IMG/VR virus record: IMGVR_UViG_3300032320_001902
Coordinates: 1-58,902 of that record
Length of the DNA: 58,902 nucleotides
Direction: 5' to 3' (one strand)
Source: a virus
Lineage: Duplodnaviria > Caudoviricetes
Below are positions 3,001-43,129 of this stretch, piece by piece. The translations under genes and the position numbers were made by a program. The notes under the pieces were generated by a model. The model saw only the letters and a list, made by a program, of their open reading frames with translations. It ran no database searches and had not been told where the DNA came from. How positions within the stretch are numbered: position 1 is the stretch's first letter; each line of letters opens with the position of its first letter.

Positions 3001-4052
3001 GGATTAAAATAAGTCAAAAAACCATCTTGAACATATGCACCTTTATAGTACATACACCTTTGCATATTGTAATTGTCAGTCCAATAGAAGTTTGTGCTTC
3101 TTATATTCCTTTCGGTTGGCCGACAATCAATTTGTTTTTTTGAAATAAAATTAAACTTTCTTGACCTTATAAGCCTTGTGTATGCATACGAATCTGTTCC
3201 TTCCGTATATTGAGCAACTCCAAGCTCGCCTATCGCTTCTGTTCCAATAAGTATTGTCCCGCCATTAGAGTTTGCCGTCCATTGGCTTCCAATAAGTAAA
3301 AATGAAAAAGGGCTACCAGCGCTATTTTGAGCAAGCCAAGCCCCATCCATTCCATTGTTAGTTCCTGTTATGTAAACGTTTTGCAATCCAATAAAAGGGT
3401 CAGTATATGGAGCTGTATTTACAGCTACCATTTGCCCTGCTTGTTGACTATTTACAACGTCAACTTTCAAAGGCTCGTCATCAGTTATACAAGACCAAAC
3501 AAATAGGTCGTTGTCAATATACGAACTTCCAATTGGCTTAAATATTCCAGCACGAGCCACAGGCTCTTGTATGATTGTTTGCTGTACGTTTTCTATTGAA
3601 ATATCCCAATCCAATCCAACTTGAGAGAAAAAATAAACATACGTTGCACTACCTGCACTTATCGGTGAAATATTAAAAGGAAACGCAGGTATACCAATGT
3701 TTGTAAGAAATGCTGTTTGGAAATTGGCGGCAGTCAAAGCGGGTGTAGTGTCATTTTGGTATGTAAATTCAAACCATTTTAACCCATTGCTTCTAAACAC
3801 AACAACTGTCTTTGTTTCGGGAATTGTAGTATAAAAATCAAAGGTCGTTACAAACTTCTTTACTTGCGGAACAACGCTTCCTAACTTAAACGAAAACTTA
3901 TTTCCATATTGGTTTTCTGCACTAACACTTGACCCACCTTCATCGGTAATAAAAGCTATATCCAAAGCGTTTGAATAATCGCCTTCCTTAATCCTTGCTA
4001 TATCACCGTCAAGGTTTAAATTTCCAAAGGGTACAACTGATTGTTCAGGCAT
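1..4052 (-). CDS. Large tail protein (crAss-like muzzle / P22 gp10-like tail stabilisation protein); truncated at the window edge, >1350 aa
   Basis: ATG at 4052 gives MPEQSVVPFGKLNLDGDIARIKEGDYSNALDIAFITDEGG. The frame is still open at position 1 (...WEQLPAFFECIQANSGSLSNKPLS). It is absent from the ORF track, consistent with no in-window stop. The N-terminal motif and the position after the ring proteins match tail-stabilisation proteins. Confidence 0.75.
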   Translation of the reverse strand, partial: MPEQSVVPFGNLNLDGDIARIKEGDYSNALDIAFITDEGGSSVSAENQYGNKFSFKLGSVVPQVKKFVTTFDFYTTIPETKTVVVFRSNGLKWFEFTYQNDTTPALTAANFQTAFLTNIGIPAFPFNISPISAGSATYVYFFSQVGLDWDISIENVQQTIIQEPVARAGIFKPIGSSYIDNDLFVWSCITDDEPLKVDVVNSQQAGQMVAVNTAPYTDPFIGLQNVYITGTNNGMDGAWLAQNSAGSPFSFLLIGSQWTANSNGGTILIGTEAIGELGVAQYTEGTDSYAYTRLIRSRKFNFISKKQIDCRPTERNIRSTNFYWTDNYNMQRCMYYKGAYVQDGFLTYFNPNGQYDYQSLAEEIKSQVVGLFKIEFVDQVESGGAVKAGNHRYVVRATNTQSNKTEISIPTGLINVFSSGFNSQALGDNVGDATSKINRLVVTDIKPGIFQKIELIDILYSSSIGLVSATVVNSYTLGADDVSIDVQHTGNETGSYALDPTELLYLTQVYKTVKSNQVIDNRMVNTNVTLFQDKDFREFAKTFQHEIIVGDAGSWGSFYTSSDINYFRSTPPPPPGIGFPFATDFKFGAYKQPQTVHNSMSLMLNETYRFKVVFKMKDSGQLSPAYWIDDICINADSDNNNPLGQPVTLPNRRIPSTDPFISPYRIQDMNITSSFIAQPDGGGYTFRVEFSRFDVGFLIDGKPVYEIVDEMYIFMDNCIPEILFNGILVPMVANAYTFPSGTPETYEAANGYLTDWFDATGGVPSGQSNSQTTNRYSTLPLSGTSYRQYPGQFAFYSPDHDMAGNNLDGYRNGDYILNYGAMYGFYPDGGIQNQLLPNAICYYNNSLTELYQLANGVTNGNINFKQVMPASNFNAGGYVNAGGSFNFSFATYTKNQKSSLTTPPTEDTYYNLADSWVFDPNAILDPLVTFAPRQDLFVDTICYAQYYRQIFNNPLNPEEGKYGKFDQGISYYAGASVNMTFARQYAGQPFPSSGTSGFTTFGVTFFATRYGDVFTQRYLHKIKTPTQTNISFPWGSTFESLVGGGGAISYFCQNRNNSNMINKVNSDGQPQYPIGTYTEWLGSYFRQRPRYDRTYSYHTGVKGIVGYNILVKDYTAPSRTVYSALKPQDGTYDGYRDFQPLDFLDVPMTDGEITHHEKVNGELFIQQVKKWLKYFFNTRGELQVTGNSTSIAIGDGSVLARPPIELSAYGSRNKWSFIKGKSVGGQEVVYIFDLTSKAIIRYAGDGTRNISIENNVDSFIRNNTRFLDGVDTPAWKYGITGVWNEKRKVAIWTARAINPTKPIWFVTLPYQVGDIVWFGDNNTDAGWEQLPAFFECIQANSGSLSNKPLS

Positions 4053-23410: not shown

Positions 23411-23534
23411 AGGTTATATGTAAATCTTTTTCATTGATTTTCAAGCAGTTACAAAAATATTTACTTGCTGTTGTATTTTGTATCGTTTTTTGACCTTCCT
23501 TTGCAGAGTCAATAACAATAAAAAAAACAAAGCG

Positions 23535-27227: not shown

Positions 27228-27920
27228 ATGAAAACCTACATTGCATACTACCGAGTAAGTACAAAGCGACAAGGCGAATCAGGTTTAGGTTTGGAAGCAC
27301 AAAAACAAGCTGTTAACCTATACGCCAAAAATAATGGCCGTATATTGCAAGAGTTTACAGAAGTTGAATCAGGTAAGAAGGATAAACGACCTCAACTTGA
27401 ACAGGCGATAAACCAATGTAAACAAAAAGAAGCAACTTTGCTCATAGCTAAGTTAGACAGACTAAGTAGGAATGTATCTTTTTTGTTTACTTTGAAGGAA
27501 TCAGTTAACTTTGTTTGTTTAGATTTACCCGACCTTAACACCTTAACCCTGGGCATCTTCGCAACGATGGCACAGCACGAAAGGGAACTGATAAGCAAAC
27601 GAACAAAGGCTGCATTGCAAGTCAAAAAATCCAATGGAGTAAAACTCGGGAAACCTGAAAACCTAAACTATGAGGCCGCAGTTAATGGTGGGATAGCAAG
27701 GAAAAGAGCCGTATGGGAGGATAACAACAAAGTCCAAATATACGAGTACATCAAAATGTATATTGCCGCCAACCCTGACTACCTTCTGAAAGAGATTAGT
27801 TATAACCTTAATCGCCTTGGCTACAAACGAAGCGGTTACATAACAACCGATGGGAAGGATTTCACACCTCAAAATGTGTGGTATCTAATAAACTATTACA
27901 AACAAGAAAATTTACTTTAA
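27228..27920 (+). CDS. Serine recombinase (resolvase/invertase family)
   Basis: 'YYRVSTKRQ', 'ESG....RPQL', 'AKLDRLSRN', 'ERELISKRTKAAL...K..G.KLG'. Confidence 0.92.
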   Translation: MKTYIAYYRVSTKRQGESGLGLEAQKQAVNLYAKNNGRILQEFTEVESGKKDKRPQLEQAINQCKQKEATLLIAKLDRLSRNVSFLFTLKESVNFVCLDLPDLNTLTLGIFATMAQHERELISKRTKAALQVKKSNGVKLGKPENLNYEAAVNGGIARKRAVWEDNNKVQIYEYIKMYIAANPDYLLKEISYNLNRLGYKRSGYITTDGKDFTPQNVWYLINYYKQENLL

Positions 27921-28164: not shown

Positions 28165-28203
28165 AAATTAATATATTTGCAATGTCAATAACAACTTACC
28201 ACA

Positions 28204-28314
28204 ATGAAACCTAACCTTCTCAAAAGGCTGCTACTTGCTGCCGCAATTGTCCTATCCCTTGGCTTAATCGCCTTGGTTTACATTATTTCAACCACTAATT
28301 TTAAATTCCTGTGA
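28204..28314 (+). CDS. Small hydrophobic peptide (36 aa)
   Basis: MKPNLLKRLLLAAAIVLSLGLIALVYIISTTNFKFL, after promoter TATATTTG at 28172-28179. Confidence 0.45.
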   Translation: MKPNLLKRLLLAAAIVLSLGLIALVYIISTTNFKFL

Positions 28315-29753: not shown

Positions 29754-29819
29754 ATTTCACCAACTTGTACTACAAACAAAATATTTACTATTTTTACAGC
29801 GTCAATAACAATTTAAGCG

Positions 29820-38070: not shown

Positions 38071-38130
38071 ACATTTTTGTACTACATTCAAAAATTGTAC
38101 TACATTTGTGCGTCAATAACAATTAAAAAT

Positions 38131-42337: not shown

Positions 42338-42535
42338 ATGAGTACATTTAAAGAACGTCTTATTGACGAAAAACAACAACTCGATGAAAAGATTGAAAAA
42401 CTAAAATCTTTTATCCAAAGTGAAAACTTTCAAAAAATTGAAGCGGTTCAAATGTCGTTACTAAATGCACAAATGTTTGCAATGTCAACGTACAGCCAAA
42501 TATTGGCAGAACGGCTTGCTTGGTTAAAAGAATAA
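42338..42535 (+). CDS. crAss001_48-like small coiled-coil protein
   Basis: 'F.ERL..EK.QL.EKI.KL..FI.S..F......LL..Q..AM..Y..IL.ER' pattern. Confidence 0.7.
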   Translation: MSTFKERLIDEKQQLDEKIEKLKSFIQSENFQKIEAVQMSLLNAQMFAMSTYSQILAERLAWLKE

Positions 42536-42615
42536 CCCCTGCTTTTGCCACAGAAAATTAGGTAAACAGGACAGAGACATTTTAATCGATGGCTTTTGTT
42601 TTTTCCACCCCTTCC

Positions 42616-42654
42616 AAAAAAAAACCCCTAAAGTCATCATAAAAACTTTAGGGG
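42616..42654 (-). terminator. Intrinsic terminator at the end of the minus-strand late arm
   Basis: CCCCTAAAGT/ACTTTAGGGG stem plus 9 U. Confidence 0.85.
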
Positions 42655-42702
42655 CAGCCTGTCTAAGTGGATACGTCAATAACAACCGACAGGGTTATAC
42701 TT
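42616..42702 (-). ncRNA. Candidate small antisense RNA 1
   Basis: Promoter TACCTTTG at 42707-42714; CCTGTC/GACAGG hairpin with loop GGTTGTTATTGACG; followed by a terminator. Confidence 0.6.
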
Positions 42703-42721
42703 TGTGCAAAGGTAAAAAAAC

Positions 42722-43129
42722 TTATTGAATAGTCAACTCAAAACTTTCTTTATTAAAGAACCCTTCCAAACTCTCTGTGGCAACCCTGCTTGATGTTCCA
42801 TCAATAACTCCGTCATTATTAATATCGGCATGATTTAAGCAAGGAGCAATGCACCCTTTTAATTGGTTTGAAAAATTAGCTGGGTGAAACAATATTCCAT
42901 CCCGACCTTTCACATTGACAACTCTATACGTTTTCTTTTTCAATCGTGGCGAAGAAACAAACACCACAGAGTAAGTTCCCTTTGGAATGCAAGAAATGCT
43001 GCTTTTATTTTCTTTCCAAGGCAGTTCAATCGTTTTTAGTGATAATGTTTCACCCTTGGCATTCGATAGGCTCATTTCGCCTAATGTGACGTTTTTTTGA
43101 TACGTCCTTGTTATGGTTGCTTTATTCAT
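42722..43129 (-). CDS. DUF5675-family protein, probable endolysin/peptidase
   Basis: 'TIELPWKEN...SCIPKGTY', 'V.GRDGILFHPAN....LKGCI'; next to holin-like genes; promoter TACCTTTG at 43134-43141. Confidence 0.75.
   Translation of the reverse strand: MNKATITRTYQKNVTLGEMSLSNAKGETLSLKTIELPWKENKSSISCIPKGTYSVVFVSSPRLKKKTYRVVNVKGRDGILFHPANFSNQLKGCIAPCLNHADINNDGVIDGTSSRVATESLEGFFNKESFELTIQ

Follow-up and report, generated by a model that had tools for sequence, protein, structure and literature searches.

A phage locus with a candidate small RNA complementary to an 11-nt tag at the predicted 5′ ends of four operon mRNAs

Results

Gene layout of the window

The stretch of DNA analysed here (the window) is the entire IMG/VR record IMGVR_UViG_3300032320_001902, a phage record of 58,902 nt with an estimated completeness of 81%. 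Its genes form three blocks: a minus-strand block at positions 1 to ~22,050, a plus-strand block between ~22,600 and 42,535, and a second minus-strand block that starts at 42,722 and occupies the rest of the record. The plus block includes NinB-like, RecE/YqaJ-like recombination, primase-helicase, HNH nuclease and small serine recombinase genes, and the content of recombination, primase-helicase and HNH nuclease functions identifies it as an early/middle replication block. Domain scans of 30 plus-block proteins detected no integrase-type or repressor domain, and in none of the 30 did a Pfam regulator or HTH domain exceed the cut-off; one TetR_C-like match stayed below threshold (E = 0.009, 16.6 bits versus a cut-off of 27).

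A pattern scan of the window found TTG...TAnnTTTG elements in its intergenic regions. This is the −33/−7 promoter type of Bacteroidota, according to the consensus given in a section of Baez et al. (2019; PMC6847099), where the G of TTTG in the −7 box is numbered −5.

The last gene of the plus block, which is related to crAss001_48 and ends at 42535, converges on a minus-strand gene for a DUF5675 protein, and the gap between them holds the small unit described below (Table 1). We considered a 'lysis gene' label for the DUF5675 gene and dropped it, because neither its product nor those of its neighbours gave an informative Pfam, PHROG or PDB match (for the DUF5675 protein, no PDB relative at E ≤ 1). 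The spacer of ~80 nt between the last plus gene and the terminator of the small unit (42536–42614) is non-coding according to the open reading frame (ORF) list; it is nearly as well conserved among relatives as the small unit and holds CTGTCCTGT, which is similar to a hairpin arm.

Table 1. Coordinates of genes, promoters and RNA features discussed in the text (positions in the window)
Feature	Position	Strand	Details
Tagged promoter P1	23496–23518	+	−7 box TTCCTTTG, caga, tag 23508–23518; ATG 23535 (62-aa ORF)
Small serine recombinase gene (230 aa)	27228–27917	+	Resolvase N-terminal domain, E = 9e-30; early block
Tagged promoter P2	28172–28194	+	−7 box TATATTTG, caat, tag 28184–28194; ATG 28204
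Tagged promoter P3	29789–29811	+	−7 box TATTTTTA, cagc, tag 29801–29811; ATG 29820; NinB-like and RecE/YqaJ-like operon
Tagged promoter P4	38101–38122	+	−7 box TACATTTG, tgc, tag 38112–38122; ATG 38131
Intrinsic terminator	42615–42655	−	12-pair stem 42655–42624, T9 run 42623–42615
Predicted small RNA, about 85–88 nt	42615–42702	−	+1 at 42702 from the G(−5) numbering; 3′ end in the T-run
Hairpin 1	42658–42693	−	CCTGTC arm 42693–42688, 24-nt loop 42687–42664, GACAGG arm 42663–42658
Seed TTGTTATTGAC in the loop	42675–42685	−	Exact complement of the 11-nt tag
Promoter-like element	42707–42736	−	TTG 42736–42734, 19-nt spacer, −7 box TACCTTTG 42714–42707
DUF5675 gene	42722–43129	−	Directly upstream of the small unit; Pfam domain of unknown function

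An 11-nt tag downstream of four promoters

Four promoters of the plus block are followed by the same 11-nt sequence, GTCAATAACAA, hereafter the tag. Exact copies start at 23508, 28184, 29801, 38112 and 42675, all on the plus strand; a search of both strands of the record returned 5 forward and 0 reverse copies, versus 0 and 0 for the reversed pattern as a control. When one mismatch was allowed, nine matches were found, and none of 100 shuffled records reached this number (mean 2.26, SD 1.34, maximum 6). Scaled from the shuffle mean, ~0.07 additional exact copies would be expected by chance in the 59-kb record. The copy at 42675 is the only one outside a promoter, and read on the minus strand it forms part of the loop of a CCTGTC/GACAGG hairpin. 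The repetition of the tag and the presence of its complement in the loop are therefore real and beyond chance.

At the four promoters, the tag starts 4, 4, 4 and 3 nt after the −7 box (P1–P4, respectively) and lies 16, 9, 8 and 8 nt before the ATG, so that the distance to the start codon varies, unlike the 3–4-nt promoter spacing, which also holds in the homologues of the four promoters. A preliminary description of this DNA had noted exact complements of the loop sequence at these four sites, with just such spacers and ATG distances, and every position proved correct. With the G of the box at −5 (as numbered in a section of Baez et al., 2019; PMC6847099), the first G of the tag coincides with the predicted +1 in three of the four promoters and with −1 in the fourth. 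Four mRNAs, with leaders of 19–27 nt, are accordingly predicted to open with the tag as their first 11 nt.

Three further intergenic sites of the plus block match TAnnTTTG exactly and lack the tag (22781, 29043 and 33611), so that about four of seven plus-block promoters are tagged. The operon of P4 is the final one on the plus strand and extends to 42535, towards the small unit. P2 drives only a hydrophobic peptide of 36 aa (28204–28314, plus strand; MKPNLLKRLLLAAAIVL...), which is separated from the next gene by a gap of 160 nt.

The minus-strand unit in the convergent gap

The promoter-like element of the small unit overlaps the final codons and the stop codon of the DUF5675 gene and is followed by a hairpin and a terminator (Table 1). 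The 24-nt loop of hairpin 1 reads GGTTGTTATTGACGTATCCACTTA and contains the seed. A 97-nt stretch of the unit has a predicted folding energy of −27.6 kcal/mol (z = −2.61), and 2 of 200 shuffled sequences were equally stable. In the predicted ensemble the seed is partly exposed, with a mean unpaired probability of 0.58, and the seed duplex amounts to −11.6 kcal/mol. Searched against Rfam 15, the unit reaches the gathering threshold of no family; the best match is bglG-cis-reg, at 20.9 bits versus a threshold of 80 (E = 0.95). The part of the loop beside the seed (42664–42674, minus strand) reads GTATCCACT and is invariant in all relatives; it contains TATCCAC, which we take to be the core of the DnaA-box consensus.

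Only one ORF covers the unit, a mechanical reading frame of 53 aa that starts with TTG (42524–42685), begins inside the seed and crosses the terminator. In relatives, its frame and end are altered by a 1-nt indel and a 14-nt deletion. Judged from these alignments, the small unit has no protein-coding capacity, its sole ORF being mechanical and not maintained in frame or end.

No terminator was found between the DUF5675 stop codon and the unit, which could therefore also be the 3′ UTR or 3′ end of the DUF5675 mRNA. Likewise, no plus-strand terminator-like site was found between 42535 and 42722; read-through from the P4 operon would thus be antisense to the entire small RNA gene, and mutual interference between the two is possible.

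The preliminary description had proposed a late-expressed RNA at this locus, with its own promoter or as the 3′ end of the lysis transcript, and had noted the CCTGTC/GACAGG hairpin and a strong terminator in ~87 nt without an ORF. Hairpin and terminator are present, the latter with a 12-bp stem and a T9 run, and the anatomy of a promoter, a hairpin exposing the complement and a terminator is real and conserved. The unit holds no credible ORF, with the overlapping TTG frame as a qualification. The 'late' timing finds no support; the promoter of the unit is of the same ordinary host type as the others.

Pairing between the loop and the leaders

We scanned 121 start regions for pairing with the loop. 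The tagged leaders ranked 1, 2, 3 and 6, with loop-to-leader duplexes of −15.4 to −21.4 kcal/mol compared with a mean of −10.0 kcal/mol (SD 3.0) over all regions; some bases that precede the predicted +1 are part of the duplex windows. In the predicted fold, the loop of 24 nt offers an exact 11-nt complement to targets that lie 8–16 nt before an ATG. At position 12 of the leader, directly after the tag, 11 of 12 promoter copies have a pyrimidine, which could pair with a G of the loop. The conserved block of the leader also ends where such pairing would have to end, its 5′ edge being the predicted first nucleotide of the mRNA and its 3′ edge being 2 nt away from the loop base.

Conservation in close relatives

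Five close relatives were available for comparison: two viral contigs (G001 and G002, with 90% identity in DUF5675) and three metagenome contigs (97%, 97% and 89%). Beyond these three near-identical sequences, identity in the metagenome scan falls to 50%. The two viral contigs carry four (G001) and five (G002) exact copies of the tag, on a single strand and in homologous places, and the P4 promoter is also present in L265, a mosaic contig of 7.9 kb. Among these few and related lineages, none of the 44 tag columns at the promoters varies, compared with 34 of 80 columns in the flanks (12 nt before and 8 nt after; Fisher P = 2e-8). The four proposed leader targets are thus real promoter-proximal sites at which the tag is under strong selection. 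At promoter P1, the window and the two viral contigs (loci L074 and L077) have the tag in common and differ in −7 box, spacer, leader and downstream gene. Three different genes follow P1 in the three lineages; judged by these alignments, this tagged promoter marks a mosaic boundary.

Hairpin 1 is identical at all 36 nt in five aligned sequences, four of them distinct, while the sequences on either side of it, namely the final 60 nt of the DUF5675 gene and the terminator loop, do vary. The −7 box of the unit reads TAACTTTG or TACCTTTG in the relatives, which keeps TA..TTTG and varies at the two free positions. Three pairs of the terminator stem are changed on one side; read on the minus strand they still pair, as G·U or C-G, whereas the plus strand would have A·C mismatches there. 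This minus-only pairing and the T-run indicate that the element is built for a minus-strand RNA. No pair of the terminator or the hairpin is changed on both sides. Since none of the five close relatives shows a change in hairpin 1, the seed or the tags, there is no covariation either within the hairpin or between seed and tag, and the invariance of hairpin and tag fits a DNA site equally well.

For more distant comparisons, an alignment-based search with the primase-helicase gave 80 loci; a search with the single protein had returned only two distant ones. Two primase homologues with 65–66% identity lie on short contigs only. We found no comparable tag in distant relatives with 36–49% primase identity, among the 25 loci checked for repeated 10-mers and the 19 checked for promoter-proximal motifs. 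Viral loci anchored on DUF5675 (6-kb flanks) were uninformative, as even close relatives scored 0. A repeated TTGTCGGCG motif in one distant primase relative, L100 (IMGVR 3300020016_000004), was considered as a comparable tag and judged to belong to a different system. The same contig has 6–7 copies of TTATTGTCGGCGGAT, an unrelated regulatory motif that occurs on both strands and mostly between genes.

Across all the loci compared, the antisense 11-mer occurs in 182 distinct contexts, and, when these were read by eye, a hairpin loop followed by a terminator was seen only in the clade of the window and its close relatives. The 17-mer TTGTTATTGACGTATCC gave nine matches, seven of which (three distinct sequences) lie outside the clade; none of the seven has the hairpin and terminator, and we took them to be chance or coding matches.

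Tagged promoters in unrelated phages and in bacteria

A search of IMG/VR for the tag behind a −7 box (TAnnTTTG-N4-tag) returned 61 stretches, of which 33 were distinct. Eleven of these are intergenic with an ORF start within 40 nt; three come from the clade itself. The other eight promoter-like contexts, from about five families, lie on contigs without proteins in common with the window: when protein sharing was tested on 22 loci, only L265 scored, plus one weak match. The foreign tagged lineages comprise the IMG/VR contigs L268, L291, L298 and L311; L289, L295, L300 and L301; L288; L290; and L293. Control 11-mers gave no promoter-like context, neither the reversed tag (0 of 31 distinct sequences) nor a permutation of the same composition (0 of 10 stretches). 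The two copies in contig G006 were rejected as independent tagged promoters, since they are paralogous leaders with extended similarity.

The genes downstream of the foreign tags are small early-type ORFs and, as judged from its N-terminus, one P-loop ATPase-like gene. In one foreign family, the promoter and the tag are kept and the small downstream gene differs. An antisense copy of the tag was found in none of 10 whole foreign records, eight of which have promoter-like contexts (completeness 20–82%). Tagged promoters without an antisense copy in unrelated phages suggest that the tag can function without this RNA, and the tag may predate the small RNA of the clade. More broadly, TAnnTTTG-N4-GTCAATAACAA may be an early promoter/leader module that Bacteroidota phages have in common. 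A role of the tag that is independent of the RNA would be in line with a host factor, with a common DNA-binding protein or with a function that the leader has by itself; it also fits an RNA that evolved in this clade to mask a pre-existing leader module.

Outside phages, at least 120 stretches of bacterial genomes from many phyla match the tag pattern. No host regulon emerged among the matches listed, in which the 25 intergenic matches with an ORF precede unrelated genes.

Discussion

A small RNA that would mask a shared 5′ tag

The best single reading of this locus, to which we assign about even odds (a probability of roughly 0.5), is that it encodes a small RNA of the phage which base-pairs with four operon mRNAs at their 5′ ends and controls them jointly. 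In this Bacteroidota-type phage, the minus-strand stretch from 42702 to ~42615 would encode a small non-coding RNA with a host-type promoter of its own (TTG-N19-TACCTTTG); the RNA could also arise as the 3′ end of the DUF5675 mRNA. The predicted fold of the RNA consists of a 6-bp stem that closes the 24-nt loop and, after it, the intrinsic terminator. The loop would present UUGUUAUUGAC for pairing with GUCAAUAACAA, the 11 nt with which the four plus-strand operon mRNAs are predicted to begin. Production of the RNA, its pairing and the resulting repression are what we infer from sequence.

How such pairing would act is suggested by the leaders. According to part of the work of Baez et al. (PMC6847099), initiation in Bacteroidota proceeds without Shine-Dalgarno pairing and is tuned by the secondary structure of the leader. 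Because this makes initiation dependent on unstructured leaders, a duplex should hinder 30S binding, and one that covers leader positions +1 to +11 or +13 would most likely block 30S loading on all four operons together. Another possible effect is an altered decay that depends on the 5′ end, in either direction.

Alternative readings of the tag and of its fifth copy

Several observations could also be accommodated if the 11-mer were a double-stranded DNA operator, at which a phage or host regulator bound over +1 to +11 represses the four promoters. We regard this as the main rival and a serious one, although less probable than the RNA. It would account for the fixed spacing of 3–4 nt to the −7 box alongside a distance of 8–16 nt to the ATG, for the sharp edges of tag conservation and for a weak dyad symmetry (GTnAnTnAC), and a shared DNA-binding factor predicts that the site should also stand behind promoters on unrelated phage contigs without an antisense copy, as it does. 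The fifth site would then be a further operator, at about +18 to +28 of the minus-strand unit, or a roadblock that ends the plus block, the latter in line with the absence of a plus-strand terminator-like site from 42535 to 42722. However, 11 barely symmetric base pairs are short for an operator. The 30 plus-block proteins scanned also offer no Pfam regulator domain above the cut-off, which is a weak point to raise against it, as many of them are ORFans. The operator leaves unexplained why the fifth copy sits in the hairpin loop of a promoter-to-terminator unit devoid of a credible ORF, why one edge of the tag falls on +1 and the other at the loop base, and why pyrimidines occupy leader position 12 in 11 of 12 copies.

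The recurrence of the tag in about five unrelated phage families, before small early-type genes and a P-loop ATPase-like gene and with both controls at zero, lends itself to yet another explanation, namely that the tag is intrinsic to the promoter or leader. Either the tag would raise expression, as an initial transcribed sequence or 5′ leader, or a host RNA-binding factor would recognise it, and mosaic recombination would have spread it; P1 and one foreign family do retain the promoter and tag while the gene behind them is replaced. No RNA–RNA pairing would then occur, and the hairpin would serve as a stabiliser or processing element at the 3′ end of the DUF5675 mRNA, or as a sense decoy, given that a plus-strand read-through transcript would carry the sense tag in the corresponding hairpin loop. 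We consider this unlikely. The exact 11-nt complement in the loop is hard to attribute to chance when ~0.07 extra copies are expected record-wide, the G·U pairs and the T-run of the terminator indicate a minus-strand design, and the bacterial matches listed precede unrelated genes and define no host regulon. Chance itself, with the hairpin and terminator forming merely the 3′ end of a convergent late transcript, appears very improbable. The 11-mer is A/T-rich, the record is long enough (59 kb) for an expectation near 0.07, and small hairpins near terminators are common; but the copy is exact, lies in a loop and falls within one of the few intergenic stretches, the 36-nt hairpin is invariant next to variable coding sequence, and a conserved promoter-like site stands immediately upstream.

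Relation to known regulatory RNAs and operators

Like c4 of the immunity region of phages P1 and P7, the proposed regulator is a small phage RNA whose loop is complementary to short repeated sites on phage mRNA, the pairing being a proposal in our case. c4 reportedly blocks the expression of downstream genes by pairing with its repeated mRNA sites. It acts within one operon, on its own transcript upstream of ant, from which it is processed. Here, by contrast, the sites would lie at the extreme 5′ ends of four separate operons up to 19 kb away, and the RNA would have its own promoter and terminator in a different host phylum; we found no sequence or Rfam relation to c4. The recognition sequences of the P1/P7 c4 antisense RNA are placed within RNA loops in the relevant part of one review (PMC12197685).

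The CI RNA of satellite phage P4 offers a second parallel, in that one small RNA addresses several identical short sites on phage transcripts (predicted ones here). Its seqB pairs with seqA and seqC, which provides joint control of early functions; CI causes premature termination of transcription and is cut from the transcript under its control. Unlike the sites of CI, those considered here occupy +1 to +11 of short leaders beside start codons, which suggests an effect on translation or stability. Compared with both c4 and CI, what would be new, on condition that the RNA is expressed, is the targeting of four dispersed operons through an exact 5′-terminal tag by an RNA with an independent promoter and terminator in a Bacteroidota host.

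In its predicted size of ~85 nt, exposed seed, intrinsic terminator, several targets close to start codons and possible origin in a 3′ UTR, the candidate also resembles trans-acting sRNAs such as prophage-encoded DicF, as these are presented in part of the same review (PMC12197685). Unlike such sRNAs, its predicted targets are the operons of the phage itself, which share an exact 11-nt tag at their 5′ ends. Known trans-acting sRNAs mostly act on host mRNAs by imperfect pairing, often with the help of Hfq or ProQ; to our knowledge, Bacteroidota lack both proteins. Phage-repressor operators that cover the start of transcription have in common with the tag that they are short and conserved and hold a fixed position at the +1 of several promoters. 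The tag differs from them in its length of 11 bp, its weak symmetry and its fifth copy inside a unit that resembles an RNA gene.

Nearly all known phage regulatory RNAs come from enterobacterial phages and a few other model phages. Our search of open-access full text found no phage-encoded regulatory RNA of a Bacteroidota phage, and no published description of this element in open-access text, exclusive of supplements. If the proposed pairing is true, a single RNA controls four operons via one 11-nt 5′-terminal tag, and does so in a phylum that initiates translation without Shine-Dalgarno pairing. The locus would then be a compact model of RNA-based temporal control, and tag and anti-tag would make a portable pair for gene control in Bacteroidota. 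A bolder version, which we think improbable, holds that GUCAAUAACAA is a 5′-terminal leader module common to the early/middle genes of several unrelated Bacteroidota phages, that the dedicated anti-tag RNA of this clade masks all tagged operons together, and that early transcription, through read-through from the P4 operon across the small RNA gene, and the RNA oppose each other in a self-timing early-to-late switch without a protein repressor.

Independently of the RNA, the tagged promoters of unrelated phages offer a lead of their own on the construction of early promoters and leaders in these phages. The −33 regions of P3 and P4 (29760–29790 and 38070–38100) have TTGTACTAC in common, and a distant relative, L099, carries repeated CTGTACTACA units around TTGTAATACAA (positions 3100–3300 of that locus); TTGTACTAC and the L099 repeats may represent a second regulatory motif.
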